From positions 1-32,983 of the forward strand of contig JAUVKB010000002.1 in assembly GCA_030596405.1 (NCBI GenBank): a stretch of DNA of 32,983 nucleotides, read 5' to 3'. This DNA comes from Deltaproteobacteria bacterium. Its GTDB lineage: Bacteria > Desulfobacterota > Desulfobacteria > Desulfobacterales > JAUVKB01. The notes below the pieces were generated by a model. The model was not told the DNA's origin, ran no database searches, and was given only the letters and a program-made list of their open reading frames with translations. Made by a program: the position numbers and the translations under genes. Position 1 is the first letter of the stretch; each line of letters starts with the position of its first letter. Of the stretch, positions 2,701 to 32,915 are shown one piece after another.

Positions 2701-2776
2701 TGGAGCCGGCGGGCGGATTCGAACCGCCTACCTGCTGATTACGAATCAGCTGCTCTACCAACTGAGCTACGCCGGC
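2701..2776 (-). tRNA. tRNA-Thr (anticodon CGT), 76 nt, CCA encoded
   Basis: The reverse complement reads GCCGGCGTAGCTCAGTTGGTAGAGCAGCTGATTCGTAATCAGCAGGTAGGCGGTTCGAATCCGCCCGCCGGCTCCA. The cloverleaf arms pair perfectly; the anticodon loop is TTCGTAA. Confidence 0.9.
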
Positions 2777-18208: not shown

Positions 18209-18248
18209 TTCTTGTTTTTAACAATTTATCAAATTAATAGAGGATAAT

Positions 18249-18500
18249 ATGGCTTTTGATTCGGAAAAAGATAAAATTTTAAAGAAGTGGCAGTGTGATG
18301 AAACAGGACTTGTTATTACAATTAATCGATATGGCGATGGCGAGGCAAAACTTCAGATAGGCCCCAGGATTTTTATAAAAAAAGACGGCGGCGAAAGCCA
18401 GCGAAAGGCAGGACGCCTTACAATAGAAGATCTGATGTGGTTTTACGATATTATTGATGAAATAAAAGAAGAACTTTCCGATCTGGCAAATCCGGTTTGA
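18249..18500 (+). CDS. Small hypothetical protein (83 aa); weak resemblance to PC4/YdbC-like ssDNA-binding fold
   Basis: GAGGA lies upstream of the ATG. The pattern LVITINRYGDGEAKLQIGPRIF...KAGRLTIEDLMWFYDIIDEI is reminiscent of YdbC/PC4-type proteins. This is impression only. Confidence 0.4.
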   Translation: MAFDSEKDKILKKWQCDETGLVITINRYGDGEAKLQIGPRIFIKKDGGESQRKAGRLTIEDLMWFYDIIDEIKEELSDLANPV

Positions 18501-18504
18501 TGAA

Positions 18505-19257
18505 ATGACATGTCATGATGCAATAATAAATCCGGTAAAAAGAAAAAACTCACCGAAATTAGGACCTGTGGCTGTATTGGTAAGCGGTGAAAGCGATCTG
18601 TTTTTACTTTGCAGGTTGCTGAATCTGAAAGAAGATAATTACCTGAACCTGTTTATGAGCAGGTTATATACCGGCAATGGCGAAATCACGGATTTTTCTG
18701 TGGCCGGGCCTTTGGTGGGAGCGCCTTATGCCGCTATAATGCTTGAAACCATTATAGCATGGGGCGCAAAAAAAATTATATTTTTTGGATTGTGCGGATC
18801 AATCTCAGATAATGTTAAGATCGGTGATATAATTGTCCCTGTCTGTTCAATTATTGATGAAGGGACATCATGTCATTATAACGGCCAATGGCATAATCGG
18901 GGTGAAAATAATAGCAGTATGGCATATTCGTCAGATTATATTGTAAAAAAGATAAAAGATGAATTGATAAAAAAAAATCAGCCGTTTCATAAAGGAATTA
19001 TCTGGTCGACCGACGCCGTTTTCAGGGAAACCCATGAAAAAATTAAATATTTCCAGGACAAGGGCGCGTTAGGCGTGGAAATGGAAACTTCCGCTCTCTT
19101 TACTATCGGAAAATTCCGCAATGTCGAAGTGGGGGCAATCCTGGTTGTATCCGACGAACTTTCAACCTTTAACTGGAAACCCGGATTCAGGGAAGAACGT
19201 TTTAAAAAAAGCTGTGAGGTCGCAGGCGAGGTGATAAGCGGTTTAAAAAACTTATAA
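18505..19257 (+). CDS. Nucleoside phosphorylase family protein (PNP_UDP_1 fold)
   Basis: GAPYAAIMLETIIAWGAKKIIFFGLCGS and GVEMETSALFTIGKFRNVEVGAILVVSD match the phosphate/ribose-binding motifs of uridine/purine nucleoside phosphorylases. Confidence 0.8.
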   Translation: MTCHDAIINPVKRKNSPKLGPVAVLVSGESDLFLLCRLLNLKEDNYLNLFMSRLYTGNGEITDFSVAGPLVGAPYAAIMLETIIAWGAKKIIFFGLCGSISDNVKIGDIIVPVCSIIDEGTSCHYNGQWHNRGENNSSMAYSSDYIVKKIKDELIKKNQPFHKGIIWSTDAVFRETHEKIKYFQDKGALGVEMETSALFTIGKFRNVEVGAILVVSDELSTFNWKPGFREERFKKSCEVAGEVISGLKNL

Positions 19258-19275
19258 AAACTTATAAAAACTTAA
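19246..19275 (+). repeat. Three tandem 10-bp A-tract units spanning the nucleoside phosphorylase stop codon
   Basis: AAAAACTTAT AAAAACTTAT AAAAACTTAA. The helical-period phasing lies 34 nt upstream of the binding-protein start codon. Confidence 0.7.
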
Positions 19276-19308
19276 AGGGTCTGAACCAGAGGATAGATTA
19301 CAAATAAT

Positions 19309-20217
19309 ATGAAATACACATACAACTATTTGGTTGTATTTTTTATCATTATAGCGCTTTCTTCCACGCTCAAAGCCCAGCCGGTTACCAGAACGGTAAC
19401 GGATCAGATGGGACGAAAGGTCACCCTTTTAAACAACCCCCGGCGTTTGGTTGCGCTGGCTCCAAGCATCACGGAAGTCATCTTTGCCCTGAAACAGGAA
19501 GACCGCTTAAAAGGCGTGACCCGGTTTAGCGATTTCCCTGCCCAGGCCGCAAATCTTCCCAAAGTAGGTTCATATGTCCATCTTGATCTGGAAAAAATAG
19601 TTGCGCTAAAACCCGACCTTTGTATCGCAATAAAGGACGGAAACCCAAAGGAGGTCATTGACCGTCTGGAGTCTTTAAACATACCTGTCTATGCGGTGGA
19701 TCCGAGAAATTTAGAGGCCGTGATGGAAACGATGCTTGAAATCGGAGGCCTGCTGAATGCTGATAAAAAGGCAAATTTTTTGGTTCAAGGGATGCGCAGC
19801 CGTGTACAACTGGTGCAATCTCTGGTCGCAAAAGCAGACCATCGGCCCCGGGTTTTTTTTCAGATAGGAATCTCCCCTATTGTTTCCGTTGGAACACAAA
19901 CCTTTATTCACGAATTGATTGTGCTTGCGGGAGGGCAAAATATTTTAGAAAGCAAAACGCCCTATCCGCGACTTTCCAAAGAACAGGTCATAGCTCTTTC
20001 CCCTGAAATTATTATCATAACTTCTATGGCAAGGGGCGAAATCTTTGAACATGTAAAAAAACAATGGCAGAGCTGGCCCACTTTACCTGCAGCACGAAAC
20101 CAACGCATCTTTCTTGTTGATTCCAATCTGTTCGACCGCCCCACGCCCCGTATCGTGGACGGCCTCGAACTTCTCGGACGCCTTATTCATCCCGAGATTT
20201 TTAAGGAGGCTGAGTGA
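19309..20217 (+). CDS. Periplasmic substrate-binding protein of a BtuF/FhuD-class (Peripla_BP_2) ABC importer (cobalamin or iron-chelate)
   Basis: Signal peptide, then PRRLVALAPSITEVIFALKQEDRLKGVTRFSDFP...LPKVGSYVHLDLEKIVALKPDLCIA, a pattern typical of BtuF-like binding proteins. Substrate cannot be assigned by eye. Confidence 0.85.
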   Translation: MKYTYNYLVVFFIIIALSSTLKAQPVTRTVTDQMGRKVTLLNNPRRLVALAPSITEVIFALKQEDRLKGVTRFSDFPAQAANLPKVGSYVHLDLEKIVALKPDLCIAIKDGNPKEVIDRLESLNIPVYAVDPRNLEAVMETMLEIGGLLNADKKANFLVQGMRSRVQLVQSLVAKADHRPRVFFQIGISPIVSVGTQTFIHELIVLAGGQNILESKTPYPRLSKEQVIALSPEIIIITSMARGEIFEHVKKQWQSWPTLPAARNQRIFLVDSNLFDRPTPRIVDGLELLGRLIHPEIFKEAE

Positions 20218-21224
20218 ATCTTAAAACTTCGTTTATTCTAAAACGATTGCTGGCTGTTTCATCTTTTATGCTGCTTCTGCTTCTTGTGTCCATGTTTCTG
20301 GGACTTTCCATGGGATCAGCCGGAAACAACTTAAAGGCTGTGTGGCAATCTGTTTTCGGAGCAGGCAGGGCGGAATCCATTATAGATACCATTATCTGGC
20401 AGATACGTTTTCCCCGGGTAATTCTTGCAACTCTGGTAGGGGCGACTCTCTCTTTAGGAGGCCTTGTCTTTCAAGCGCTGCTTCGAAACCCTCTGGCTGA
20501 ACCTTATATCCTGGGCATCTCGGGAGGAGCTGCCGTCGGCGCCATCATCGGCATACTGATGAAGCTTTCACGTTTTCCCGGTGTAACCATGACCGCCTTT
20601 GCCGGAAGTATGGCCACTCTTTTCCTGATTCTTGTCATAGCGTCGGACCAAGCTGTTCTGAAAAAGGATTCACTCCTCTTGTCCGGTGTTATGGTTAATG
20701 CATTCTGTTCGGCAATAATCATGTTTCTTGTTTCTCTGGCACAGGATTCCAGTCTCCACAACATCATTTTCTGGCTCATGGGAGATCTTTCCATGACCGA
20801 TATCAAACAGGTCTCTATGCTTGCCGCGACACTTATTCCATGTTATGTCTTAATTTTCTGGTTTTCCCACAAAATGAATCTGCTTCTTATGGGAAAAGAG
20901 ATGGCTCAAACCATGGGGGTTAATGTAAAATACGTTACCTTAATCCTGCTTGTCGTTACTTCATTTATGGTGAGCGCTACAGTGTCTCATTGCGGTCTTC
21001 TGGGTTTTGTGGGGCTGGTTATGCCTCATCTTTTGCGGCTTATTTTCGGTCCGGATCACAGGGTTCTTGTTCCGGCATGTTTGATAGGAGGAGGCGCCTA
21101 TATGGTTTTATGCGACCTGCTGGCAAGAGTCCTTCCAAAAGAGGGAGAGATGCCTGCCGGCGTCATTACCGCCATGATTGGAGCCCCTCTTTTTATTATC
21201 CTCTTGAGAAGATCCGGCCGATGA
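20214..21224 (+). CDS. FecCD/BtuC-family ABC permease
   Basis: 336 aa, ~9-10 TM segments, with motifs RFPRVILATLVGATLSLGGLVFQALLRNPLAEPYILGISGGA and GAPLFIILLRR. The GTG start overlaps the upstream stop (GTGA); AAGGAGG lies upstream. Confidence 0.9.
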   Translation: MNLKTSFILKRLLAVSSFMLLLLLVSMFLGLSMGSAGNNLKAVWQSVFGAGRAESIIDTIIWQIRFPRVILATLVGATLSLGGLVFQALLRNPLAEPYILGISGGAAVGAIIGILMKLSRFPGVTMTAFAGSMATLFLILVIASDQAVLKKDSLLLSGVMVNAFCSAIIMFLVSLAQDSSLHNIIFWLMGDLSMTDIKQVSMLAATLIPCYVLIFWFSHKMNLLLMGKEMAQTMGVNVKYVTLILLVVTSFMVSATVSHCGLLGFVGLVMPHLLRLIFGPDHRVLVPACLIGGGAYMVLCDLLARVLPKEGEMPAGVITAMIGAPLFIILLRRSGR

Positions 21225-22075
21225 CAACAGCAATCGATGTAACAAATCTGAGCTATTCTTACGGGGCTTCCAAAGTTTTGAAGGATATCTCCTTTTCTGT
21301 TCAAAAAGGCGATTTTTTTATCATAATAGGTCCCAATGGTTCAGGGAAAACAACACTGATGAAGGTTATTGCCGGAATAGCAAAACCTGAAAACGGCCGG
21401 CTGAACGTCATGGGGCTCCCTCTTATGAACTATGCCCGGAAAACCCTGGCAAGAACCGTCTCTTTTGTCCCCCAGATGATCCCGATCGAATTTCCTTTTA
21501 CCGTAACGGAAATGGTCATGATGGGACGTGCGCCTCATATGGGTTTGCTTGGACTGGAACAGGAAAAAGATCTTGATATCACACACCGGTCTATAGATTT
21601 TACCGGCATAAAACATCTGGCAGACCGCAAACTAAATCAGCTTAGCGGTGGAGAACGGCAAAGAGTCTTTATCGCCAGGGCTATCTGCCAGGAACCACAG
21701 ATCATACTTCTTGATGAACCCACGGCTTCTCTGGATCTTGCCCATCAGGTCCGCGTAATGGATTTGATGGAAAAATTAAAGGAGGAAAAGGGGATAACCA
21801 TTATTATGGTCTCCCATGACGTAAATCTTGCCGCTATGTACGGCAATAGTCTGCTCATGCTCAAGGCAGGGCAAATCGTAAGCATGGGGCAGGTTAATGA
21901 GGTTCTCACGTTCAAAACGCTGGAAAATGCTTATGGCTGCCCATTGTTGATTGACGAAAACCCGCTTGGAAAGTTTCCCCGCATCACGCTTGTACCGCAA
22001 AAATTTATGAGTCCGGATATACGCGCCGGAAAATCGGGGAATAAAAAAAGTATATCAAGAACAATATCAAAATAA
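21221..22075 (+). CDS. ABC transporter ATP-binding protein (BtuD/FepC-like)
   Basis: The true start is ATG 21221, overlapping the permease stop (ATGA): MTTAIDVTNLSYSY... Walker A GPNGSGKTT, signature LSGGERQR, Walker B ILLDEPTASLD. The track ORF from 20990 is an out-of-context N-terminal extension. Confidence 0.9.
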   Translation: MTTAIDVTNLSYSYGASKVLKDISFSVQKGDFFIIIGPNGSGKTTLMKVIAGIAKPENGRLNVMGLPLMNYARKTLARTVSFVPQMIPIEFPFTVTEMVMMGRAPHMGLLGLEQEKDLDITHRSIDFTGIKHLADRKLNQLSGGERQRVFIARAICQEPQIILLDEPTASLDLAHQVRVMDLMEKLKEEKGITIIMVSHDVNLAAMYGNSLLMLKAGQIVSMGQVNEVLTFKTLENAYGCPLLIDENPLGKFPRITLVPQKFMSPDIRAGKSGNKKSISRTISK

Positions 22076-23194
22076 TTCGAGATCTTCCATCTTTTTTTCA
22101 TCACCAATAAAGGGTCTTAATCCTATTTTTAGCATATCATATCCCGTTACCGTACGGATATCCGTTCCAACGCCTGTTGTTACAGTCACATCAACAGGAC
22201 CTGTCAGAGGATTTCGGTTAAGCATCACTATGGCGATAATAACATCTGCGCCCAGCCTGATCTTGCCTACAAACCATATATTATCATCGCCAAGGCTAAA
22301 AGAGACTCTGGAGCTGGGAGTAAAAAAGGTGTCTTTTCCTGTGATAGATATGGCGTGACGGGTCGGTATCCATCTGCTCCCGAGTATTGCTCTGGGAGAA
22401 ATCGCGTTGATAATACCCTCATTTGCAATAGAACCTGAATTGACCGTTATTTCGGCTGTATCGCTGACGCTGTTTGCGGTATCGGTTACCCTTATAATAT
22501 CGGTTGCCTGATAACCTGTGGTGTTTGTCCCTGCGGTGTACAGTCCGTTTGCTGTTATTACACTCCCTATGCCGGTTGTTTCCATTTCAAAGCTGTAAAC
22601 CGGACTCTGGCCGCAATCCCCGGCGCTTGAAGCACTAAAATTAATGCTTTCTCCTGAATCGGCCGAGGTTTCTTTAGGGCTGACAGTTACCTTGCACGAT
22701 GTAAAACTGAACTCTCCGTCAACGGCGGTTGTCTCAAGTGTATAATTGTCTTCATCAACAAGCGTTACGTTTTCCAGTTTCAAACTTCTGGTTTCGGAAA
22801 GGGGAGCGTCTTCTTTTACATCAAAGGCAACGATAAGCACCGGCCCGCTCCCCTTTGCAATCAGGCTTAGAGACATGGAAAAAGCAAGCATTCTGGCGCA
22901 CCCGTTTTCAAGTTCGCTATAATCGCAGGAAAAACCCTCGGTGCGGGAAGTGTTTCTAACGCCTGTCACGACAAGATAATCATCCGTGTCGCAGATATCC
23001 AGCTGCAGTGCCATTACAGCGTCATCAGGATTATCAAGACTTATTATCACCTCATTCCCGGAAGAACCGGCAGCGCCGGCGCCGGCTTCGATGGCAAGTG
23101 TCACCTGAGACTGCGCTTTGGGACAGGTTGTTAAAATAATAGAAAAAATTATGCTTGCCAGAACAAATATTTTAGTAGCTGATACATTTTTCAT
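22067..23194 (-). CDS. Secreted (possibly lipid-anchored) protein: divergent cohesin-like module + Ig-like (Big_2-like) domain + IPT/TIG-like C-terminal domain
   Basis: The N-terminus MKNVSATKIFVLASIIFSIILTTCPKAQ has a signal peptide and a borderline lipobox, LTTC. The cohesin-like segment is VTLAIEAGAG...VMALQLDICD...GCARMLAFS...GSGPVLIVAFDV. The C-terminal domain ends VDVTVTTGVG, as in the 280-aa paralog. Confidence 0.7.
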   Translation of the reverse strand: MKNVSATKIFVLASIIFSIILTTCPKAQSQVTLAIEAGAGAAGSSGNEVIISLDNPDDAVMALQLDICDTDDYLVVTGVRNTSRTEGFSCDYSELENGCARMLAFSMSLSLIAKGSGPVLIVAFDVKEDAPLSETRSLKLENVTLVDEDNYTLETTAVDGEFSFTSCKVTVSPKETSADSGESINFSASSAGDCGQSPVYSFEMETTGIGSVITANGLYTAGTNTTGYQATDIIRVTDTANSVSDTAEITVNSGSIANEGIINAISPRAILGSRWIPTRHAISITGKDTFFTPSSRVSFSLGDDNIWFVGKIRLGADVIIAIVMLNRNPLTGPVDVTVTTGVGTDIRTVTGYDMLKIGLRPFIGDEKKMEDLELF

Positions 23195-23212
23195 TTTACA
23201 AAACCCTTTGTT

Positions 23213-23264
23213 TTTTAAAAATGAAAAGCAAGCGGACTAGAGGTTGAATTTCATCCGCTTGCTT
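23213..23264 (-). terminator. Terminator-like hairpin between the 154-aa cohesin gene and the 375-aa gene
   Basis: Arms AAGCAAGCGGA (23226-23236) and TCCGCTTGCTT (23254-23264) around a 17-nt loop. On the minus strand the hairpin is followed by TTTTCATTTTTAAAAAA. Confidence 0.45.
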
Positions 23265-23343
23265 GTTTATGGAATACATCTCATCTTAAAACCGTGTTCT
23301 TAAAAGCAGTGCGCGGCTTTAAGGGAAGGGTCTTTAAGAAATT

Positions 23344-23808
23344 TTACAGGCTTGTTCCCTTAACTGTTACATTGACCGGCTTATTGTTGATATCGGCCAC
23401 ATTTACATCCGTCAGGGTCAAATCAGCCTTTTTTGCCCGAACTCCCGGCGCAGTCTTGTAGGCAATCTTTAATATCGGCCCGATGCCCGGGGATATGGCT
23501 TTTCCGTCAAGGGAGACTAAAATCACCTTTACCCCTTTGTCGCCCAAATCATTAAACTGGGCAAGAAACCCCTTGGAGCGGACGGTCGTCATCAACCTTT
23601 GTGCGGTTGCAATATCAGGCATATCTTTTAATATGAACTCGACTCCCAGAACCGGAACATCATTTTTCATCTTGACGGCAACCTTGTCTCCAAGATTTAC
23701 CAGTTTTAAAGTCGCAACACCTGCGGTGGCGGAAAATGCAAATACAATCGTCATGGCAAAAACCAGCGCCGTTGCCGCGATATATTTTATGTGTCTTGTA
23801 CTTTTCAT
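23344..23808 (-). CDS. Small secreted single-module cohesin-like protein (divergent class)
   Basis: The preferred start is ATG 23808 (MKSTRHIKY...), because AAGGAG sits 8 nt upstream. The track start at 23826 would place that RBS inside the ORF. Signal peptide ...FAFSATAG, then one beta-sandwich-like module with VPVLGVEFIL...GVKVILVSL...GIGPILKIAYK. Confidence 0.7.
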   Translation of the reverse strand: MKSTRHIKYIAATALVFAMTIVFAFSATAGVATLKLVNLGDKVAVKMKNDVPVLGVEFILKDMPDIATAQRLMTTVRSKGFLAQFNDLGDKGVKVILVSLDGKAISPGIGPILKIAYKTAPGVRAKKADLTLTDVNVADINNKPVNVTVKGTSL

Positions 23809-23851
23809 GTCATAAACTCCTTTCATCTATATCCTGAAAATATTTTTAATT

Positions 23852-25363
23852 TTAATAATGATTAAGACAATTGTCGCGCCCGAGAATTTCCTGCACAATT
23901 GCCATAACATCGGAAATGTTTATTTCTGCATCAGGTGCAGCGCAGCCGCCGGCCTGGGTTCCGGTGGGGACATCGCCGGCCGTAAACTCACAGTCATTAG
24001 GCGTATAATCTGCCAAAATAATTTGAATGTCACGCACTACATCAAAGATGTTTATCAGGCCGTCTCCCACGGTTAAACCATCTATCGACAGTGGGTAGAC
24101 ATCTCCGAACAAACCGAGAAAAAATATGCCCGGATCTTCTCCGGCAGTCAAAGGAAGGTCGTCCGGATCGGTAATAAGCAGATTGCCGGAACTAAGTCCT
24201 ACGCATGACTGTGTTGCGGCTGCATCAACATCATAGTTAAGGGTAAAAATAGGCCCGTCGCCGGCAGCAATAACAGCTCCGGATTGAGCAAATAATATAA
24301 TCCTTGCACAACCGGCCACAGGATAGTCATCCTGCAAATCGACCGTATAGCCTGCTGTCCGGTCTGTCAGTGTAACCAAAGGCAGACTCAGCACATCCTG
24401 GCCATTGGTGATATCCACCTGAATACCGCCGACCGCAACCTCATTTGTAAGACAGACTTCTACTTTTTTACCCGTATCTCCGGGCATACCGGCTCCGTTT
24501 TTAATATCAAAGAGTAATCCAGCACATGACCGAACATCCTGATCACAATTATTAGCTTCATTGCTTTCTTCAATCATGCCGCCAAAGTCCGCGCATACTA
24601 TAATGGTATCCATTGCATCTGAACAGGTGATATCTGCAAAAGTCTGTATGTGGGAAGCGCCCGGATCAAGCGCAGGGCATCCTTGAGTTGCTGCAGGCGT
24701 TCCGTCAATGGTAAGAGATGTTATACTTGCAGGTGCCAGGACATCTCCATTATTTGTTACCGTGCAGACTACACTGTAAGTAGGGTCGGTAGTTTCTTCA
24801 TGCATCTCGCTTATAACAAGATCCGGCGCGGGAGGCGGTCCTGATCCGGTTATTACAACATCACCGCTGGTTACAGTTGACGGCACTTCAGTGCCGGTCA
24901 AGTCGCCCACTATGACATCCGACAGGTCAAGTGGACTGGTGCCCGAGGCTTCGGCCGTGAAGGTAAGGGTAGCAAAGATTCCTTGACCTGAAACCTCACA
25001 CCCTGCTCCGAGTACAACCCCTGCAAGGCCATCGATAAATCCCTGGTCCTGATAAAGTCCGCCCATGATTGAAACAAAAGTGCCGCATCCGGGAGGATCC
25101 TGGCTAAGCAGGTCACCCTCTGTCCAGCCGTCAAATTCCAGAAGATCCGGATTCCAGTTAATGTCAAACTGGACACCTGCAATCGGTGTATCCGGCGTGA
25201 CAACGATATCAACGGTAAAGGTATCTCCCGGATCCACGGTCTGGGTGGAAGGCGTGAGCACCATCGTTGTAGCAGCCGGCGCCGACGATACAAAAAACAT
25301 ACTCAGCAAAGATACGGCAAAAACCGTGAGTATAATTTTTGAAAGACTTCTTGTTTTTTTCAT
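23852..25363 (-). CDS. Scaffoldin-like secreted protein: cohesin (class 1) - CARDB - cohesin-like (class 2) - divergent dockerin-like C-terminus
   Basis: Signal peptide. Cohesin 1: DPGDTFTVDIVVTPDTPIAGVQFDINWNPDLLEF...GIFATLTFTAEASGTSPLDLSDVIVGD. CARDB: PDLVISEM...VCTVTNNGDV...LDPGASH...IEESNEANN. Cohesin 2: GKKVEVCLTNEVAVGGIQVDI...GCARIILFA...GDGPIFTLNYDV. The C-terminus has two segments, GDGLINIFDVVRDIQIIL and PDAEINISDVMAIVQEIL. Start ATG 25363 is favoured over 25369 by AGGAGA spacing and by alignment with the paralog. Confidence 0.8.
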   Translation of the reverse strand: MKKTRSLSKIILTVFAVSLLSMFFVSSAPAATTMVLTPSTQTVDPGDTFTVDIVVTPDTPIAGVQFDINWNPDLLEFDGWTEGDLLSQDPPGCGTFVSIMGGLYQDQGFIDGLAGVVLGAGCEVSGQGIFATLTFTAEASGTSPLDLSDVIVGDLTGTEVPSTVTSGDVVITGSGPPPAPDLVISEMHEETTDPTYSVVCTVTNNGDVLAPASITSLTIDGTPAATQGCPALDPGASHIQTFADITCSDAMDTIIVCADFGGMIEESNEANNCDQDVRSCAGLLFDIKNGAGMPGDTGKKVEVCLTNEVAVGGIQVDITNGQDVLSLPLVTLTDRTAGYTVDLQDDYPVAGCARIILFAQSGAVIAAGDGPIFTLNYDVDAAATQSCVGLSSGNLLITDPDDLPLTAGEDPGIFFLGLFGDVYPLSIDGLTVGDGLINIFDVVRDIQIILADYTPNDCEFTAGDVPTGTQAGGCAAPDAEINISDVMAIVQEILGRDNCLNHY

Positions 25364-25380
25364 TTTCATTTTCTCCTAAT
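24846..25380. repeat. Copy 1 of a ~535-bp direct repeat (RBS + signal peptide + class-1 cohesin module)
   Basis: Hand alignment with 26778-27312 gives no indels and about 37 mismatches (roughly 93% identity). Similarity stops abruptly at the module boundary (VVITG|). Confidence 0.85.
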
Positions 25381-25477
25381 GTTGAATTTTTTCCTGGGGA
25401 ATTTAATCTCACCCAGTATAGTTTTTAAACAGCTTGTCCAGGCCAATAAGAAAGAGAAGATAATTAGATTCTAATTT

Positions 25478-27295
25478 TTATTGCCCTGCCAAAATAAAAC
25501 TTCCATCCTGTAATACATACACAGTCCCGCCGGATACAGACACTTCATAGATTGGCCGGAATCTGGACTGATTATACCCTTTGTCCCAGATCAATCGGAT
25601 TTTCCAGTCTTCAATCGGTTCAACCGGTTCAACGGGTAACGGTTTAATCTCTCCATGTTTAATCTCGATTGCCTTTTTTGCAAAACCCAAAGCATTTTGA
25701 GCAATTTTCAGCGCCTCTTCTTCAGCCAGATATTTTTGGTCTTCCAGACTCCAAGATGCCTGGCGGAATGTCCCGGTTTCACCTTTCACCATCAGTGCCA
25801 CGGAAGCGGTATTTTCTACCTTTGACTGACTGAAAAGTATCAGGTCATAGTCCTCCCCGGACTCCAGATCAATCACGTTCATGGCTCCACTGAGTCTGCT
25901 CTGGGAATAGATATTTATAAAATCAGGAGAAGTATAAAGCTCAACTGGGATAACCTTATCCCAGTTTACCTCTTTGAACACTTCTTCAATCTCTTTTGGT
26001 TCAATATCTATTTTGGACTTGGAAACTCTGGACATGGCAACAAAACCAGAAGAAACATCCAGATCTTTTTTTGCATCCAGAGCGCTTGCAAGTTCTTGAT
26101 CCGGCTTGCTTTCCACGTAGGTGATATTAATGGAATCCAGCGCGGCATCCAGTTCATCCATGTCAACATCCTGAGGCGGTTCTGCCACATAGCACCAACT
26201 ACCTTCAGTGGCTTGATATATATTCCTGAACTCGTCACCGGTCTGGTAAACGTTATATCCCATTCCCGTTGCCTTTGGATCATTAAGCCATGCCCCATAA
26301 AACTCTAAATCAGACGGCATTTGCCAGTCAACCCACGGGTCCTTGTTGCTTACAAAACCCCGCACCGTTTTCCAGTTATTGCTATAGGAACCGTCGGTGG
26401 GCACATGGGCCGGGGCGTTGGTCTCAGCCACATCCGGCACTTCATAGTCTATCCAGTATATCATCCGCTTGATGGCATGATCCTGGTCAGAATCCGAAAA
26501 ACCGATAAAATTATATCTTGCGGTATCAGGATTCTGGTTGGTCTGATCAGTCAGCATCCAGGCCAAATCACTTTCGTTCATGTCCTCTCCTGGAGTGCCG
26601 GTATGATATGTATTGTACAAATCAACCTGACCCGGCCAACTATAAGAGTCGTCAAAGAACCTCAGGGCTTGCAGACCAGAGGCTGCACCGGTGCAATAAA
26701 GTTCTTGCGCCTGTTCCTGTGGGAAATAGTCATTACCTTGATCATCGATCCCCAGATGATTTATGTAAATCGATGTGCCGGTTATTACAACATCACCGCT
26801 GGTTACAGTTGACGGCACTTCAGTGCCGGTCAAGTCGCCTACTATGACATCAGAAAGAACAAGAGGACTGATGCCCGCGGCTTCGGCCGTAAAGGTAAGG
26901 GTTACATATATTCCGGGGCCTGAAACCTCACACCCTGATCCGAGTACAACCCCTGCAAGGCCATCGATAAATCCCTGTTCCTGATAAAGTCCGCCCATGA
27001 TTGCAACAAAGGTGCCGCATCCGGGAGGATCCTGATTAAGCAGGTCACCCTCTGTCCAGCCGTCAAATTCCAGAAGATCGGGATTCCAGTTAATGTCAAA
27101 CTGGACACCTGCAATCGCTCTATCCGGCGTGACAACGATATCGACGGTAAAGGTATCTCCCGGATCCACGGTCTGGGTGGAAGGCGTGAGCACCATCGTT
27201 GTAGCAGCCGGCGCCGGCGATACAAAAGGCATACTCAGCAAAAACACTGCAAAAACTGCGAGTATGATTTTTGAAAAACTTCTTGTTTTTTTCAT
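25478..27295 (-). CDS. Secreted protein: class-1 cohesin fused to a ~430-aa uncharacterised region (possible clan-CA peptidase-like core and PepSY-like tail)
   Basis: The N-terminal 172 aa are near-identical to the 503/505-aa scaffoldin-like protein. After VVITG the sequence becomes unrelated: ...QEQAQELYCTGAASGLQALRFF...APAHVPTDGSYSNNWKTVRGF..., ending ...ALKIAQNALGFAKKAIE...IYEVSVSGGTVYVLQDGSFI. Confidence 0.75.
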   Translation of the reverse strand: MKKTRSFSKIILAVFAVFLLSMPFVSPAPAATTMVLTPSTQTVDPGDTFTVDIVVTPDRAIAGVQFDINWNPDLLEFDGWTEGDLLNQDPPGCGTFVAIMGGLYQEQGFIDGLAGVVLGSGCEVSGPGIYVTLTFTAEAAGISPLVLSDVIVGDLTGTEVPSTVTSGDVVITGTSIYINHLGIDDQGNDYFPQEQAQELYCTGAASGLQALRFFDDSYSWPGQVDLYNTYHTGTPGEDMNESDLAWMLTDQTNQNPDTARYNFIGFSDSDQDHAIKRMIYWIDYEVPDVAETNAPAHVPTDGSYSNNWKTVRGFVSNKDPWVDWQMPSDLEFYGAWLNDPKATGMGYNVYQTGDEFRNIYQATEGSWCYVAEPPQDVDMDELDAALDSINITYVESKPDQELASALDAKKDLDVSSGFVAMSRVSKSKIDIEPKEIEEVFKEVNWDKVIPVELYTSPDFINIYSQSRLSGAMNVIDLESGEDYDLILFSQSKVENTASVALMVKGETGTFRQASWSLEDQKYLAEEEALKIAQNALGFAKKAIEIKHGEIKPLPVEPVEPIEDWKIRLIWDKGYNQSRFRPIYEVSVSGGTVYVLQDGSFILAGQ

Positions 27296-27312
27296 TTTAA
27301 TTTTCTCCTAAT
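26778..27312. repeat. Copy 2 of the ~535-bp direct repeat (RBS + signal peptide + class-1 cohesin module)
   Basis: See copy 1. Same orientation, with copy starts 1932 bp apart. The repeat includes the TTTTCTCCTAAT (AGGAGA RBS) upstream segment. Confidence 0.85.
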
Positions 27313-27396
27313 ATTTTTTTTGTTAAACTTGCAATTTTAAATAAATAAACCCGAATCTGTAATCACCTCCCTTTTTTGTTTTTAAAATTGTATTTT

Positions 27397-28803
27397 CTAT
27401 TCTCCCCAGTGCTGGCCGATCAAGACCATATCGAGCACATTTACACTGCCGTCCTGATTAATATCTTCTCTGATCCAGCCGGGGCTGCCGGTTTCTCCCC
27501 AGTGCTGGCCGATCAAGACCATGTCGAGTACATTTATATTGCCGTCCTGGTTGACATCCCAGTCAGGATAAGCAGGACCAAACGCGTAAACCTTGCCGTC
27601 TGCTCCGTGCGGGGTAAAAACCCTGCCGTTTGCAACCGCAGGCGATGATCCGCCTGCATCATAATGCCAGACTTCAGCGCCGGTATAGGCATCCAGGGCA
27701 TAAATCCCTGAATAGCAAAAATAAGTAACAGGATCAGGTTTTCCCACAAAGACCTTGCCGTCGGCCACCGCCACAGAGCATGTCCAGTTGCCGACTCCGA
27801 AGGCTGTGGAAGTTTCCCAGACCAGGGTTCCGCCGGTCGTAAAGCAGTATGTCTGTGAATAAGAATACCCTGTGCACCCGCCGCAGACATAAACATTCCC
27901 ATATGCCACAGCAGGAGTGGAATCGGTCCTTTGCACTATTTTTACCCAGTTTGTCGATCCGTCTGAAGCATCAAGTGAATAGAGTTCTCCGTCCCCGGAA
28001 AAGTTATAGGTAGTGACATAAACCGAACCGTCTGCCACAGCGGCCGAACCGCAGGCATCAAGATTGGTAGTTACATGCCATACAAGATTGCCCGAAACCG
28101 CGTCCACGCAATAGACATGCCCGCCCACATAAAGCCAGCTTGTAAGATATAAATAGCCGTTTTCATACGCTGCGGTGCCCTGGGCATATCCTGACACGTT
28201 AAACGTCCAAAGAAGGGCGCCGGTATCTTCATTAAGACAGTAGTAATGCCCTCCGTCCCAGTCGCTGCAAAAGACCTTGCCGTCGGCGACAGTGGGGCCT
28301 CCGTTGCACGAGGCATTGCCCGAGGGGTTGGTAAATGTCCATATCTGGGCTCCATCTGAAGCATTAAGACACCTGGTCTCAGGCCCTGATGAAACAAAAA
28401 CCTTGCCGTTGTGATAGGCTGGTGATGACCAGGAACCCCATTCTGATGGAAGAAGTGTTGTTGTCCAGATTGTGGCGCCGGTCAACTCGTTAAGACAGGA
28501 GAGAGCAGAATCCCCGCCATACATATCCGACGGCGCGGAAAAGGCAAAAACCTTGCCGTCCGCCACAACCACGGATGATGAACCGTTGACGCCGATATCT
28601 GCGCTTTCCCATAAAAACTCCGCGGTGTCGGGCGCGCTGGATGCGGAATAGCCGACATTTGTTGCATCGCCGTGAAATTGTTCCCAGCTTGTGCCGTCAG
28701 CCAAACTTGCAAACGCGCAAACAGGAACAAGCGCCGCAGCCGTCCAAAGAATCGTGGCGGCAAATAACATTTTTGAAATAATTTTCGATTTAAAAATTTT
28801 CAT
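27397..28803 (-). CDS. Secreted PQQ-like (BamB-like) beta-propeller protein with C-terminal duplicated dockerin
   Basis: Signal peptide ...VCAFASLA. Repeated propeller blades of the type DGKVF..S.D...YCLN..TGA..WT. The C-terminus is DVNQDGNINVLDMVLIGQHWGE-TGSPGWIRE-DINQDGSVNVLDMVLIGQHWGE (two F-hand Ca-binding repeats). Confidence 0.85.
   Translation of the reverse strand: MKIFKSKIISKMLFAATILWTAAALVPVCAFASLADGTSWEQFHGDATNVGYSASSAPDTAEFLWESADIGVNGSSSVVVADGKVFAFSAPSDMYGGDSALSCLNELTGATIWTTTLLPSEWGSWSSPAYHNGKVFVSSGPETRCLNASDGAQIWTFTNPSGNASCNGGPTVADGKVFCSDWDGGHYYCLNEDTGALLWTFNVSGYAQGTAAYENGYLYLTSWLYVGGHVYCVDAVSGNLVWHVTTNLDACGSAAVADGSVYVTTYNFSGDGELYSLDASDGSTNWVKIVQRTDSTPAVAYGNVYVCGGCTGYSYSQTYCFTTGGTLVWETSTAFGVGNWTCSVAVADGKVFVGKPDPVTYFCYSGIYALDAYTGAEVWHYDAGGSSPAVANGRVFTPHGADGKVYAFGPAYPDWDVNQDGNINVLDMVLIGQHWGETGSPGWIREDINQDGSVNVLDMVLIGQHWGE
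27400..27564 (-). repeat. Dockerin-encoding segment with a 93-bp internal duplication
   Basis: TTCTCCCCAGTGCTGGCCGATCAAGACCAT occurs at 27400 and again at 27493 (period 93 bp = 31 aa). In frame, it encodes both F-hand repeats. Confidence 0.85.
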
Positions 28804-28847
28804 TTTGTTTTTTTCTCCTTATCTTTTCAGTTAAACCTGATTAAAAC

Positions 28848-29690
28848 CTAACCGGCGGGAACTACAGAAAAAACATCTTCTCCGATAATTACATCTCCCT
28901 TGCCGGTTGTAACCGTTACATCATAAATACCTTCGGAGATACCTGCCTTCCTGATCAGGACAAAAATCTTTAAGGTTTCATTATTTACCGGTGTTACAGA
29001 CAAGACCCGGACAGCCGGGCTTCCAAATGAGACCCCGTTTCTTGCCACACCGTCATCCTTAAAACCGGTATTTTCACCGGTAATTACAAGACGACGGACA
29101 ACACCGCGTGAAATTCCCACTTCCACGACCGACGGTTCTACAGATTTAAAAACCGGCTGTGGAACCCCGCCTGTTACCGTTATAAAACCGTCTGCTGTTT
29201 CCGACGGCACTTCAGTGCCGGTCAAGTCGCCCACTATAACGTCGGTAAGGGCAAGGGAACTTGTGCCGGAAGCTTTGGCGTGAAAACTCACCGTGGCAAA
29301 TATTCCCGGCCCTGAAACCTCACACCCTGCTCCGAGCACGACACCTGCAACACCGTCGACAAATCCATCATCAGGGTAAACGCCGCCCATGACCGCAAAG
29401 TAGGTGCCGCATCCCGGGGGATACTGGCTGAGCAGATCTCCTTCAGTGACTCCCGTGTACTCCAGAACAGCAATGTCCCAGGTTATGTCAAACTGGAGAC
29501 CCGCAATCGCGGTGCCGGGTACGACATAGACATCCACGGTAAAATCATCGCCGGGATCTACCGTTAGAGCAGAAGGATGAACTTCTACTGTCGTCGCCAC
29601 TGTTGCCGCTGCCGTTACCGGCAGTAGCAACATCGGCATAAGTAATAGAAAAAGCATAAAAACGATGGTTGAAAATCTTGTTTTAGCCAT
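28848..29690 (-). CDS. Secreted class-1 cohesin protein with IPT/TIG-like C-terminal domain
   Basis: Signal peptide. Cohesin: DPGDDFTVDVYVVPGTAIAGLQFDITWDIAVLEY...GIFATVSFHAKASGTSSLALTDVIVGDLTGTEVPS. The C-terminal domain has LVITGENTGF...VSFG...YDVTVTTGKG. Confidence 0.8.
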   Translation of the reverse strand: MAKTRFSTIVFMLFLLLMPMLLLPVTAAATVATTVEVHPSALTVDPGDDFTVDVYVVPGTAIAGLQFDITWDIAVLEYTGVTEGDLLSQYPPGCGTYFAVMGGVYPDDGFVDGVAGVVLGAGCEVSGPGIFATVSFHAKASGTSSLALTDVIVGDLTGTEVPSETADGFITVTGGVPQPVFKSVEPSVVEVGISRGVVRRLVITGENTGFKDDGVARNGVSFGSPAVRVLSVTPVNNETLKIFVLIRKAGISEGIYDVTVTTGKGDVIIGEDVFSVVPAG

Positions 29691-29751
29691 TTATGTTACC
29701 TCCTTTGTTAAAATGTTTTTGGTTTAAACCTGAAAAGTTAAACCTGAAATA

Positions 29752-31398
29752 TTAAGAACCCCAGTGCTGAGCTATCAGTATCAGGTCGTTTAAGTTTACT
29801 ACCCCATCGTCATTAACGTCTTCCCTGATCCAGCCGGGGGTTCCGGTTTCGTCGAAATGCTGAGCCACTAAAAGCAGATCAAGCATATCCGTGCCGCCGT
29901 CAAAATTTACATCCCAGGCAAAGGCACAGTAGAATTCCGGCGCGGGGTACTGGTGGATACTGGTTCTGGTATCGATTTCGGCATAGGGCCAGAAGTGTCC
30001 AGCATCATTCCATGTAAAAGTCAGTTCGCCATATCCATCCGTGTAATCGACAAGTGTTCCTGGCGCAGGTTCCCATCCGCCCCATGTATCACTTACAAAA
30101 ACACCCGCATTTTCAACCGGAGATACTGTGCCGTATCCGTCTGTCCAGGTTACCGTTGCAGTGATATCATCTCCGGGGAGTATTTCGGTTTTATCAACAG
30201 ACAAAAGCATCTGGTAATATCCGAGCAGATAGTTAAACCAGTGCACGCTGTCGCCGTCTCCCACGGGCTGGGCATCCGCGCCAACCATGGGCACACTTTC
30301 GTTGTAAGCATACATCCACATATTCTCATTGGCCGGATCAACCCCGATCTGGACAACATAAGCTCCCCAGGATTCTGTTATTAAAATCTCTATGCCGTAT
30401 TCCTGGCAGTAACAGATCAGAACGCCCATTGCCGTCTGCTTGTCCACGGTAATCCCGTCTTCGGTTACATCCCCTTCGGAAACGCTGTAGCCGGCGACAT
30501 CAATAATGTCTGCAGAATCACCGCCGGTAGCCCGCAGATCAACAGAGATCGGCTGAGGCGGTGTGCCTACTTCGATAACACGGTGACAATCAGCAATCAA
30601 AGTATTGCCATTTGACAATCTTTCAGCATCCAGAGGCCCATTTAGCCCTGTATTATATTCCCAGACTATATTCCTGTCGGGATCTACCTCAATAACGCGA
30701 TTATTATAATGATCGCTAATCAAAGTATTGCCATTTGGCAATCTTTCGGCATCTATCGGGCCACTAAGTCCCATGTTGTAAGACCAGTCTATTTCACCTG
30801 CAGGGGTTATTTCAGTAATCATGTTCCAGCAATTGTTAGTAATCAAGGTGTTGCCGCTTGCTAATCGCTCGGAATCGATGGGACAGCCCTTATCGTTCAT
30901 ATCATATTCCCAGACTATATTGCCGGCAGGATCTACCTCAATTAAACCAAGGTCAAAGAGGTTGGTAATTAAAGTATTGCCGTTGGATAACCGTTCGACA
31001 TCATAAACATAGTAAAGACCGGCGCTGTATTCCCAGACTATATTGCCGACAGGGTTTACCTCAATGACACGGTTATTTTCGGCATCGGCAATCAGGGTAT
31101 TGCCGTCGGGCAATCTTTCGGCATCAACCGGGAGGTTAAGCCCTGTGTTGTACTCCCAGACTATGTTGCCTAAAGGGTCTACCTCGATAACACGATTATT
31201 GATGGAATCGCTAATCAAAGTATTACCATTTGTCAAACGGTCGGCTGCAGATGGATAGTCAAGTCCGGTGCTGTATTCCCAGACGATTTCATCAGCAGCC
31301 AGCACCGGTGTTACCAGCATCGCTACCCCTGATACCAGAAAGGCGCAGACTATGAGCACCGTGAATAAAATTCTTTGAATACCTTTTGTTTTAAACAT
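29752..31398 (-). CDS. Secreted six-bladed beta-propeller (ASST/NHL-like repeats) + transcobalamin-like DUF4430 domain + Ig-like domain + dockerin
   Basis: Six repeats of about 41-42 aa of the form IVWEY.TGL..P.DAERL.NGNTLI.D..NNRVIEVDP.GN. Then ...DGITVDKQTAMGVLICYCQEYGIEILITESWGAYVVQIG...WMYAYNESVPMVGADAQPVGDGDSVHWFNY (DUF4430-like). The C-terminus is DVNFDGGTDMLDLLLVAQHFDETGTPGWIREDVNDDGVVNLNDLILIAQHWGS. Confidence 0.8.
   Translation of the reverse strand: MFKTKGIQRILFTVLIVCAFLVSGVAMLVTPVLAADEIVWEYSTGLDYPSAADRLTNGNTLISDSINNRVIEVDPLGNIVWEYNTGLNLPVDAERLPDGNTLIADAENNRVIEVNPVGNIVWEYSAGLYYVYDVERLSNGNTLITNLFDLGLIEVDPAGNIVWEYDMNDKGCPIDSERLASGNTLITNNCWNMITEITPAGEIDWSYNMGLSGPIDAERLPNGNTLISDHYNNRVIEVDPDRNIVWEYNTGLNGPLDAERLSNGNTLIADCHRVIEVGTPPQPISVDLRATGGDSADIIDVAGYSVSEGDVTEDGITVDKQTAMGVLICYCQEYGIEILITESWGAYVVQIGVDPANENMWMYAYNESVPMVGADAQPVGDGDSVHWFNYLLGYYQMLLSVDKTEILPGDDITATVTWTDGYGTVSPVENAGVFVSDTWGGWEPAPGTLVDYTDGYGELTFTWNDAGHFWPYAEIDTRTSIHQYPAPEFYCAFAWDVNFDGGTDMLDLLLVAQHFDETGTPGWIREDVNDDGVVNLNDLILIAQHWGS
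29755..29919 (-). repeat. Dockerin-encoding segment with 93-bp internal periodicity
   Basis: TGCTGAGC occurs at 29765 and 29858 (93 bp apart). It shares the 14-mer TGATCCAGCCGGGG (encoding PGWI) with the other two dockerins. Confidence 0.8.
30565..31287 (-). repeat. Six tandem ~123-126 bp coding repeats (beta-propeller blades)
   Basis: IVWEY / IDWSY recur at residues 38, 79, 120, 161, 203 and 244 of the 548-aa protein. DNA-level similarity is visible, for example ATTGCCATTTGNCAATCTTTC recurs near 30604 and 30727. Confidence 0.8.
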
Positions 31399-31466
31399 TT
31401 TTAACCTCCTTTAAATTATAATTTTGAATTTTAGCTTAACAAATAAGGCGCCCTCAGTTTTCTTCA

Positions 31467-32915
31467 TCAAAAACTGAAATGCTGGCCCACTAAAATAATA
31501 TCGAGCATATCGATGCTGCCGTCGTCATTAACATCCTCCCTGATCCAGCCGGGGGCCCCGGTTTCTGAAAAATGCTGGCCCACTAAAATAATGTCGAGCA
31601 TGTTGACCGAGCCGTCTTCATTCACATCCCAATCCTCATAGAAATCACTTGAAAGGGCATAAAGACGGCCTCCGGCATTGCCGAAATATATCCGGTCGTT
31701 ATAGATAGCCATTCCTTGCAGTGTGTAGCCCCCGGAAGTGCCGGCTTCATCGCTGGTGAAATGCCACATCTCGGTACCGTCCTCATCGAGACAATAGGCT
31801 GTTCCGTCAGTACAATTGGAAGTGAAGTAAATATAAACCTGTTCTCCTTGAACACTTAATGCCGGCGAGGACTGGACACCGCCGTTGGGAATAAATGCCC
31901 AGATTTCTTCGCCGGCGGCTTCGGTTAAGCAGCAAAGTCCGCCCTGGGAGGAGAAGCCTCCCTTCCCGACATAAACTCTGTCATCATAAATTACCGGACT
32001 GGATGTGCTGTAACCGATTTGGACGTGCCACTGGTATGTCAAAGTGCCGGTAGCGGAGTTAAAATTGTAGGCCCAGCAGTTACCTCCCTTGCAGGTAAAA
32101 TAGACACGTCCGGCAGACTCGCTGTATGTGACTGAAGATCGGATTTCCCCGGCGCCTGAATCTACATCCTTCAGATTTTCTTCATCAACAAGCAGTCCGG
32201 TATCCTTATTGACACAGGTCAGGATTGAAGCATCATCGCCGTAGATCAGGTAATCACCTATGGCGCAGGCGCCGGCCCAGTAGTAGCCTCGTCCACTGGT
32301 GGAAGGCCGGTTCCATACAACATGACCGTCAGTGACGTCCAGGCAGTAGTATATTTTTCCATTCCAGCTCCCGATATAAATCTTGCCGTCTGCATACTTT
32401 ACCGGGGTGTTCAACTGGTCATAGGCGCTTGCTGTTTCATTTGCCCAGATTTGTGATCCGTTTGCGGCGTCAAGCGCGTATACGTGCCCGTCGTTGGTGG
32501 CGGCAAAAATCTTCCCCGCGGCATATGCCGGAGTGGAAAGTTGAAATAACATTCCTGTGCAACTTAAATCGGTCTGCCATATCTTATCGCCTGTTTCTGC
32601 GTCGAAGCCCCACATTTCCCCGAGGGCATCGAGAACAAAAATTTTTTCTTCGGCAATTATTGATGATGTGTCGATTCCGGCCATTCCGGTACTGCCGACC
32701 TGCTGTTTCCAGGAGACAGTCGCATCGGAAACAGGGGCTGTGTCACAGGTGATGCCCGAGTTTATTGCATCTTTTTGAAATTGTGCCCACCCGGAAAAAG
32801 ATTCTGTACCAACTCCTTCAGGAGTCGGCATCGCGGTTGAAACAGATGAAAAAAGCAAGAAAATTACGGCATAAAAGAAAATAATTTTTCTGCTTATTTT
32901 TAAATATTTTTCCAT
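31467..32915 (-). CDS. Secreted PQQ-like beta-propeller protein with C-terminal duplicated dockerin; first gene of the cluster
   Basis: Signal peptide. Blades of the type GKIF.A..DGHVYALDA.NG..IW. The C-terminus is DVNEDGSVNMLDIILVGQHFSETGAPGWIREDVNDDGSIDMLDIILVGQHFSF. Confidence 0.85.
   Translation of the reverse strand: MEKYLKISRKIIFFYAVIFLLFSSVSTAMPTPEGVGTESFSGWAQFQKDAINSGITCDTAPVSDATVSWKQQVGSTGMAGIDTSSIIAEEKIFVLDALGEMWGFDAETGDKIWQTDLSCTGMLFQLSTPAYAAGKIFAATNDGHVYALDAANGSQIWANETASAYDQLNTPVKYADGKIYIGSWNGKIYYCLDVTDGHVVWNRPSTSGRGYYWAGACAIGDYLIYGDDASILTCVNKDTGLLVDEENLKDVDSGAGEIRSSVTYSESAGRVYFTCKGGNCWAYNFNSATGTLTYQWHVQIGYSTSSPVIYDDRVYVGKGGFSSQGGLCCLTEAAGEEIWAFIPNGGVQSSPALSVQGEQVYIYFTSNCTDGTAYCLDEDGTEMWHFTSDEAGTSGGYTLQGMAIYNDRIYFGNAGGRLYALSSDFYEDWDVNEDGSVNMLDIILVGQHFSETGAPGWIREDVNDDGSIDMLDIILVGQHFSF
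31470..31634 (-). repeat. Dockerin-encoding segment with a 93-bp internal duplication
   Basis: ATGCTGGCCCACTAAAATAAT occurs at 31479 and 31572 (93 bp apart). In frame, it encodes both F-hand repeats. Confidence 0.85.

Follow-up and report, generated by a model that had tools for sequence, protein, structure and literature searches.

The 32,983-nt window analysed here is the whole NCBI contig JAUVKB010000002.1 (assembly GCA_030596405.1) of an uncultured Deltaproteobacteria bacterium of the Desulfobacterales, of sulfate-reducer type. Its gene at 29752-31398 codes for a modular protein of 548 residues, predicted to be secreted, which possesses a DUF4430 domain of the transcobalamin-beta-like SLBB type. 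This domain is joined to an immunoglobulin (Ig)-like domain in a fixed cassette; the protein ends with a dockerin and is encoded within an island of cohesin and dockerin genes (Table 1). Mounted through cohesin-dockerin pairing, the cassette is possibly a capture module for a corrinoid or a related tetrapyrrole, which would then be passed to an importer. This is the reading we favour, tentatively and at somewhat less than an even chance.

The likeness of the DUF4430 domain to transcobalamin, which had been proposed in a preliminary description of this DNA, was borne out and the assignment is sound, because Pfam, fold and profile comparisons all returned matches. In Pfam, PF14478 matches residues 322-387 (E-value 9.8e-7; 29.6 bits, the gathering cut-off being 23.8) over profile positions 3-68 of 72. 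Residues 283-495 were modelled with AlphaFold2 from an alignment of eight relatives, and the best model, with a predicted local distance difference test score (pLDDT) of 83.6 and a predicted template modelling score (pTM) of 0.71, consists of a beta-grasp domain followed by a beta-sandwich. With Foldseek against the PDB, the first of these domains matched human transcobalamin with bound cobalamin (2bb5; E-value 1.7e-3, 111 columns, 21% identity), the isolated transcobalamin beta domain (5no0; template modelling (TM) score 0.59) and a bacterial DUF4430 structure (3u7z; TM score 0.62), the Foldseek identity between target and transcobalamin being approximately 17-21%. The second domain resembles the MG domains of complement C3 and alpha2-macroglobulin as well as one CARDB domain. 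A family profile of 25 diverse DUF4430 domains, that of the target included, gave sequence matches to 3u7z (2.8e-6), haptocorrin (4kki, 1.1e-5), the transcobalamin beta domain (5no0, 1.6e-3) and intrinsic factor (5e-3).

The DUF4430 and Ig-like domains form a fixed unit, the latter always being found with the former across the cassette family, while the N-terminal partner varies. It is the same propeller in P0002 (56% full-length identity), an unrelated domain of approximately 270 residues in P0011 and P0015, and a cohesin in P0065, P0067 and the protein of locus L048. The family is small. A word-index homologue search with the cassette alone gave only three proteins, and hence an exhaustive profile search covering 1.84 billion representative proteins was made, which returned 37 full-cassette clusters at E <= 1e-30 and 548 at E <= 1e-3. 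A cysteine in the DUF4430 helix (YCQ) and another at the end of the Ig-like domain are both present in 23 of 31 cassettes, and every cassette without the first also lacks the second. This covariation suggests that the pair probably forms a disulfide between the two domains; the idea that the subfamily-invariant cysteine is a cobalt ligand, as in BtuM, was dropped, a disulfide being likelier for a residue that covaries with a second cysteine. A histidine in the last strand (VHW) is specific to the subfamily and is conserved in 28/31 cassettes.

The remaining parts of the target agree with the preliminary description, which had given the open reading frame, its quoted peptide and the correspondence of residues 285-390 to nt 30229-30546 correctly, and had placed a six-bladed propeller before the DUF4430 domain and an Ig-like domain and dockerin after it; this order was confirmed by Pfam, AlphaFold2 and Foldseek. 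The region of the putative signal peptide (residues 2-25) folds as an N-terminal helix in the AlphaFold2 model. Six repeats of approximately 41 residues each are visible in the propeller sequence, and in the full-length model residues 38-277 form 24 strands in six blades with pLDDT >90. The top Foldseek matches of the propeller are the NHL domains of TRIM2, Brat and Thin (TM scores 0.75-0.79), and its top 50 are NHL, Pizza or lyase propellers, virginiamycin B lyase among them, with both BtuG and arylsulfotransferase lying outside these 50. The propeller has more than 3,500 homologues, whose C-terminal modules vary. The best PDB sequence match of the target is the cellulosomal dockerin 2y3n (E-value 4.9e-7), aligned over both repeats of the duplicated calcium-binding loop-helix, and is followed by the six-bladed PknD sensor and the designed 'Pizza' propellers. 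Dockerin_1 scores 29.5 bits in Pfam (cut-off 22.9).

Genes that travel with the cassette were compared in 23 loci, 15 of which are at least 4 kb long. In 10 of these 15 the cassette is adjoined by PQQ-propeller-dockerin or cohesin/CARDB genes. Four loci (L035, L036, L037 and L048) hold orthologues, 50-58% identical, of the two PQQ-propeller-dockerin genes of the window, that of the 468-residue protein being present in all four and that of the 482-residue protein adjoining the cassette in L035, L037 and L048. The clusters of L036, L047 and L048, which are mutually divergent (proteins 35-49% identical), also possess a gene for an alpha/alpha-toroid protein, prenyltransferase/squalene-cyclase-like and with Ig domains, together with one for a second DUF4430 protein of 320-333 residues. 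Transcobalamin itself consists of two such halves, a toroid and a DUF4430 domain. The toroid gene lies directly after the cassette gene in L047 and approximately 4-6 kb downstream in L036 and L048, in the same orientation, with further cohesin and PQQ genes in between. The second DUF4430 protein of L047 and L048 begins, as read by eye, with a lipoprotein-type signal and its gene is followed by that for CbiQ, the T component of an energy-coupling factor (ECF) transporter; then comes a fused double ABC ATPase in L047. The L048 sequence stops after CbiQ, that of L036 inside the second DUF4430 gene. The same operon type (a surface-anchored protein, DUF4430, ECF-T, fused ATPase and ECF-S, in varying order) is found in annotated records of Latilactobacillus and Lactiplantibacillus and, by order of open reading frames alone, in a Bacillus record. 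In the Lactobacillaceae it corresponds to lsa1836-1840 of L. sakei (bioRxiv 10.1101/864751), and it was DUF4430-ECF neighbourhoods that led Burroughs et al. in 2007 to predict B12 scavenging (PMC1796856). The earlier proposal of scaffold-mounted capture feeding a transporter thus finds support in the toroid, DUF4430 and CbiQ genes of relatives, though with a transporter that differs from the BtuFCD importer then put forward.

Corrinoids are suggested as the ligand by the relatives of the domain. Transcobalamin's beta domain, in isolation, binds both cobalamin and cobinamide (PMC5599065), and it is the first to touch the ligand, closure and selection by the alpha domain coming second (PMC11107200). 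The only homologues which are characterised both structurally and biochemically are corrinoid binders, cobalamin being bound by all of them. In addition, an AdoCbl-II riboswitch-like element was identified in Collinsella aerofaciens (NZ_OY725717.1; L069, 1284-1372), where an operon of two consecutive DUF4430 genes begins 180 nt further downstream. It has a conserved core and a 37-nt insertion, and scores 32.9 bits, just under the gathering cut-off of 36.5, with a local E-value of 5.8e-6. This may be an unannotated variant of the B12 riboswitch that controls DUF4430 proteins. It should be mentioned that BtuH, considered as a possible DUF4430 protein, was dropped, as the BtuH paper mentions neither DUF4430 nor transcobalamin.

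On the favoured reading, the target would be exported by the Sec pathway and its C-terminal dockerin would plug into the co-encoded cohesin proteins, with the two PQQ-propeller-dockerin subunits mounted on the same complex, which might lie at the cell surface or in the periplasm. The rigid cassette, probably locked by its disulfide, would be the functional core. By analogy with transcobalamin, whose beta domain binds B12 before the alpha/alpha toroid closes, it may be the first to meet a soluble ligand, the likeliest candidate being a corrinoid (either a cobamide or a precursor of the cobinamide type) or else a related tetrapyrrole. The NHL propeller would be an accessory binding platform, its place being taken by a cohesin or another domain in relatives. 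From the cassette the ligand could pass to a toroid/DUF4430 pair and then to a membrane importer, the candidate partners being the toroid protein, DUF4430 lipoprotein and ECF (CbiQ/double ATPase) transporter conserved in relatives. A more far-reaching version, which is unlikely, makes the whole island a cellulosome-like nutrient harvester: its cassettes would capture cobamides or their precursors extracellularly, the toroid would close over them, an ECF importer or, in this bacterium, a TonB/BtuFCD route would take them up, and the genes would have spread horizontally between archaea and sulfate reducers.

A number of observations weigh against capture of a corrinoid. The confident cassette model was one of five, the other four being poor. 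The target stretches SWGAYVVQI and NMWMYAY align with transcobalamin residues 357-366 (G360, Y362) and 376-380 (W377), which we take to be ligand-contacting strands; the residues shared with the transcobalamin beta domain (GxY, W) also make up the fold's core motif, and the alignment is therefore no evidence of a conserved pocket. No cobalamin riboswitch was detected anywhere in the window, even at E <= 1, nor in the 15 cassette loci searched, and searches were also negative in the DUF4430-ECF operons of Lactobacillaceae and Bacillus. The toroid/ECF module was seen in only 3 of the 23 cassette loci, and it is present neither in the visible part of L035, the closest relative of the window, nor in the window's own 11 kb of island, which on its upstream side stops 68 nt short of the contig end. 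The host is a two-membrane cell, and no signal for outer-membrane export or anchoring was identified. The literature searched holds no experimentally shown ligand for any prokaryotic DUF4430 protein and no paper linking cohesin-dockerin systems with corrinoid or ECF uptake.

These points leave room for other functions. The chief rival, that the target is instead an adhesion or matrix subunit, is somewhat unlikely. The complex would in this case attach cell to cell or cell to matrix, for example in syntrophic consortia, with the propeller, SLBB and Ig-like domains binding surface polymers or partner proteins and no nutrient being captured. The cohesin/dockerin/CARDB clusters of syntrophic Desulfobacterota, related sulfate reducers among them, and of anaerobic methanotrophic archaea (ANME) are highly expressed and have been taken for adhesins or for factors of partner recognition (PMC10553843, PMC9012536), and other SLBB clades (Wza, ComEA) are thought to be polysaccharide-binding (PMC1796856). 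Most cassette loci show PQQ propellers and cohesins only, with no transporter in view, and the window and cassette loci yielded no riboswitch and no further sign of regulation by nutrients. However, the adhesin label of the literature is based on domain names and not on assays, while the domain of the target, with its profile matches to haptocorrin, transcobalamin and intrinsic factor, falls within the clade of transcobalamin-like domains, not in that of Wza/ComEA. The three independent loci with a toroid and a second DUF4430 protein, two of them continuing with ECF importer genes, also argue against adhesion.

The same logic of capture and import applied to another ligand, such as heme, siroheme, F430 or a precursor, or a metal chelate, is clearly unlikely, as the only characterised homologues bind corrinoids (PMC5599065) and one DUF4430 operon has the B12-riboswitch-like leader described above. 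It draws on the only study of a homologous operon, that of L. sakei, which argues for heme and in which deletion of the operon reportedly affects heme uptake (bioRxiv 10.1101/864751); this assignment, however, is based on docking and indirect uptake assays. Archaea that own these proteins are often B12 producers themselves, and what they scavenge may be another compound (Burroughs et al., PMC1796856). One cassette cluster (L036) adjoins Feo iron-uptake genes and a DtxR-type regulator, the conserved histidine is the subfamily's own, 3u7z is annotated in the PDB as a putative metal-binding protein, and riboswitches are absent from most loci. An extracellular enzyme, with a catalytic arylsulfotransferase- or lyase-like propeller for which the cassette merely positions a substrate or cofactor, has very little probability. 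The Pfam score of Arylsulfotran_2 is above its cut-off, virginiamycin B lyase is among the Foldseek matches, and SLBB domains have been proposed to supply B12 to fused extracellular enzymes (Burroughs et al., PMC1796856). Yet the Arylsulfotran_2 matches are repeated and partial, the only stretch reported being a segment of about 34 residues that covers the last part of the profile (positions 267-300 of 301), not the full-length catalytic domain, and the match to Arylsulfotrans (21.8 bits) is below its cut-off. Moreover, non-catalytic NHL domains give the best matches to the propeller of 240 residues, and it is the propeller that relatives exchange while the cassette stays constant.

The preliminary description had also made the target part of one functional locus with the importer genes at 19309-22075, to which it would supply captured corrinoid. 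Those genes were confirmed as a Peripla_BP_2/FecCD/ATPase importer convergent with the island, and its BtuFCD class was upheld. The binding protein is nearest to solved BtuF (5ysc, E-value 3.7e-34; 1n2z, 1.1e-32), with the heme binder ShuT (1.1e-26) and the siderophore binders behind it, and the top NCBIfam matches of the importer are BtuF and BtuC, both below their equivalog cut-offs. The protein belongs to a large Desulfobacterales orthologue group (65-72% identity) named 'cobalamin-binding protein' by NCBI. Orthologues with 66-69% identity lie in a cobalamin-related context: cobU and cobS come after btuFCD in loci L040 and L042, with cobT also in L040; TonB-dependent receptors are present in L038 and L040, and in these two loci RF00174 cobalamin riboswitches (93-107 bits) lie directly upstream of btuF. 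Given the likeness to BtuF and the riboswitches and cob genes of orthologues, the neighbour is by its sequence a real corrinoid importer; the true start of btuD is probably at 21221. No cob genes are found beside btuFCD in the window. A PNP_UDP_1 nucleosidase/phosphorylase gene (18505-19257, plus strand) lies 52 nt upstream of btuF, where orthologous loci carry the riboswitch, an arrangement kept in L044 and L066, and the window's copy therefore seems to have lost riboswitch control.

Adjacency as a sign of functional coupling was not borne out, and a single corrinoid locus with BtuFCD has little probability. Chance adjacency is admittedly uncommon (a rough estimate is 1-3%, counting any B12-related neighbour) and the importer is an orthologue of riboswitch-controlled BtuFCD systems. 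Against this, the genes for btuD and the 375-residue island protein are convergent, with 3' ends overlapping by 9 nt, the copy in the window has no riboswitch and lies outside the cohesin-dockerin island, and a periplasmic BtuF in a two-membrane cell needs a TonB-dependent BtuB, which is not present here. Loci L044 and L067 share 98.9% identity and were counted as one lineage. Both have 93% DNA identity to the window over 18060-22064; the similarity stops exactly at 22064, at the 3' end of btuD, beyond which both continue with an alpha-glucan-phosphorylase-like gene (L066 ends before this junction). The junction represents an insertion of the island, a rearrangement or, less likely, an assembly join, and conservation of the BtuFCD adjacency was rejected on this break. 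BtuFCD, cobUST and a TonB receptor were near the cassette in none of the 23 cassette loci (0/23), and no cohesin or dockerin genes occur in the btuFCD orthologue regions viewed with their flanks (L038, L040, L042). The adjacency is thus peculiar to this contig, and coincidence explains it best. BtuFCD might nevertheless serve as an inner-membrane route, for which it is a plausible candidate.

Table 1. Features of the window (contig JAUVKB010000002.1) around the target gene, with the basis of each assignment
Feature	Position (nt)	Strand	Basis
PQQ_2 (BamB-like) propeller + dockerin protein, 482 aa	31467-32915	-	Pfam
Target gene: 548-aa modular protein, predicted secreted	29752-31398	-	ORF list, Pfam, AlphaFold2
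Target: putative Sec-type signal peptide, residues 1-34, hydrophobic core, VLA/AD cleavage	31297-31398	-	Read from sequence by eye
Target: six-bladed NHL-type beta-propeller, residues ~37-280	30559-31290	-	AlphaFold2, Foldseek
Target: DUF4430 / transcobalamin-beta-like SLBB domain, residues ~284-392	30223-30549	-	Pfam, Foldseek, profile
Target: Ig-like beta-sandwich (macroglobulin/CARDB-like), residues ~395-493	29920-30216	-	Model, Foldseek
Target: C-terminal dockerin, residues ~494-548, two Ca-loop/helix repeats	29755-29919	-	Pfam, PDB
Cohesin protein, 280 aa, C-terminal Ig-like region	28848-29690	-	Pfam Cohesin 40.1 bits
PQQ_2 (BamB-like) propeller + dockerin protein, 468 aa	27397-28803	-	Pfam
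Cohesin protein, 605 aa	25478-27295	-	Pfam Cohesin
Scaffold-like protein, 505 aa: cohesin, CARDB, second cohesin-like module	23852-25369	-	Pfam, BLASTP
Predicted secreted protein, 160 aa: second-type cohesin-like module	23344-23826	-	BLASTP
Protein of 375 aa, N-terminal cohesin-like module (second type)	22067-23194	-	Pfam (weak), BLASTP
Importer genes btuF (19309-20217), btuC (20214-21224), btuD (~21221-22075)	19309-22075	+	NCBIfam, PDB

The island consists of eight co-directional and closely spaced genes (22067-32915), the cluster being cut by the contig end 68 nt upstream of the gene for the 482-residue protein. Three of its products possess dockerins (the target and the two PQQ propellers) and three possess a Pfam cohesin above cut-off, these being the proteins of 280, 605 and 505 residues. 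A divergent, second cohesin-like module is common to the proteins of 375, 160 and 505 residues. The first of these has a weak Pfam Cohesin match (E-value 0.0042) and a BLASTP E-value of 3e-11 against the 505-residue protein, while the 160-residue protein matches the second module of the latter at 6e-7. The presence of both module types together with CARDB in the 505-residue protein suggests a two-tier scaffold; its last 90 residues look dockerin-like by eye, unconfirmed by Pfam. The C-terminal 430 or so residues of the 605-residue cohesin protein have no match in Pfam or to PDB sequences. No membrane or cell-wall anchor was found in the island proteins, and a lipoprotein anchor on the 375-residue protein is not claimed, as its LTTC is a non-canonical lipobox. 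Promoter and terminator scans were uninformative, terminator-like sites being fewer than expected by chance.

The housekeeping half of the contig carries mfd, a surA-like gene, rodZ, mgtE, recO and glyQS, and its GlyS is 65% identical to proteins of Desulfobacterales metagenome-assembled genomes; the host, being a member of this order, is therefore a two-membrane cell. The tetranucleotide profile of the island correlates with that of the rest of the contig at r 0.82, compared with 0.93 between the two housekeeping halves and 0.35-0.57 between the island and other cassette loci, and it fits other Desulfobacterales loci. GC content at third codon positions (GC3) in the island is similar to that of the housekeeping genes. 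The island looks resident in the host genome, an assembly chimera or archaeal DNA being unlikely by the tetranucleotide and GC3 fit. At the far end of the contig, and unrelated to the target, two tRNA genes (1621-1693 and 2704-2776, minus strand; Rfam 64.5 and 72.5 bits) flank a gene of the metallo-beta-lactamase fold.

Some cassette loci are archaeal, namely L061, by its CTP-dependent riboflavin kinase, and L036 and L065, by their DUF7839 regulators. These regulators are MarR-like helix-turn-helix proteins with DUF7839 encoded directly upstream of the cassette clusters (L036, 364-5776; L065, 8922-9734); in L036 they flank the FeoAB/DtxR iron-uptake block, a hint of metal-linked regulation in such archaeal-type loci. 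In L061 (89-1255) the gene of a lone cassette protein is surrounded by housekeeping genes, and the 10 kb of sequence contain neither cohesin or dockerin genes nor any for a transporter. Its Ig-like part has a weak match to DUF4198 (E-value 5.8e-4), a domain also present in the riboswitch-controlled btuF locus L038. In L035 a bAvd/23S_rRNA_IVP gene (16557-16913) directly follows the PQQ/cohesin/cassette cluster. The bAvd protein is an accessory protein of diversity-generating retroelements, and such an element might diversify one of the surface proteins of L035.

In transcobalamin, intrinsic factor and haptocorrin, a beta domain homologous to that of the target by profile and fold is preceded by an alpha6/alpha6 toroid, whereas the target polypeptide has no toroid and begins with a propeller. 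The prokaryotic transcobalamin-like SLBB/ECF systems (PMC1796856; L. sakei Lsa1836-1840) share with the target the domain family and, as predicted, the secreted location, and its relatives L047 and L048 carry the same operon of toroid, DUF4430, CbiQ and ATPase (L048 as far as CbiQ). Those systems, however, use LPXTG, lipid or membrane anchors and have the toroid/ECF genes in the operon, whereas the target has the fixed DUF4430-Ig cassette and a predicted dockerin-to-cohesin attachment, comes from a two-membrane host and has no such genes in the window. Clusters of the same kind (cohesin, dockerin, CARDB) are known from ANME and from syntrophic sulfate reducers of the same bacterial group (PMC9012536, PMC10553843), but the reports describe no DUF4430 cargo, PQQ-propeller pair or toroid/ECF link, of which the first two occur in the target's island and the third in relatives. 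With the Bacteroides proteins BtuG, BtuH and BtuJ (PMC10404256, PMC8941943) the analogy is that of a surface, high-affinity corrinoid binder feeding a transporter, BtuG being a lipoprotein bound to BtuB. The likeness to BtuG drawn in the preliminary description has no structural basis: the propeller of the target is of the six-bladed NHL type, with no homology found and BtuG beyond its top 50 Foldseek matches. BtuG itself is a seven-bladed propeller lipoprotein.

The claim that a scaffold-mounted scavenger of this kind would be entirely new was overstated. Ig and beta-propeller fusions of the SLBB domain were catalogued in 2007 (PMC1796856), dockerin-tagged substrate-binding proteins of ABC transporters have been reported in ANME genomes (Chadwick 2022, PMC9012536), and cohesin-dockerin clusters of this bacterial group were described in 2023 (PMC10553843). 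The new elements are a conserved DUF4430-Ig cassette as predicted cohesin-dockerin cargo, the pair of PQQ-propeller-dockerin genes that constantly accompanies it and, in some lineages, a connection with a transcobalamin-like toroid/ECF module.

Anaerobic communities are shaped by the exchange of cobamides. To our knowledge, how corrinoids are captured from the surroundings is poorly understood outside the Bacteroidetes. Some sulfate-reducing partners of methane-oxidising archaea are apparently B12 auxotrophs (PMC10553843). Should the cassette bind no corrinoid, the adhesin reading of the clusters would stand, and the case would be a caution against inferring function from gene adjacency on a single contig. 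If it does bind one, the enigmatic non-cellulosomal cohesin-dockerin systems would gain a concrete biochemical role, and a small, easily expressed module of approximately 210 residues would have been defined. An entire harvesting machine, if real, would help to explain the corrinoid supply of B12-dependent partners in anaerobic consortia.

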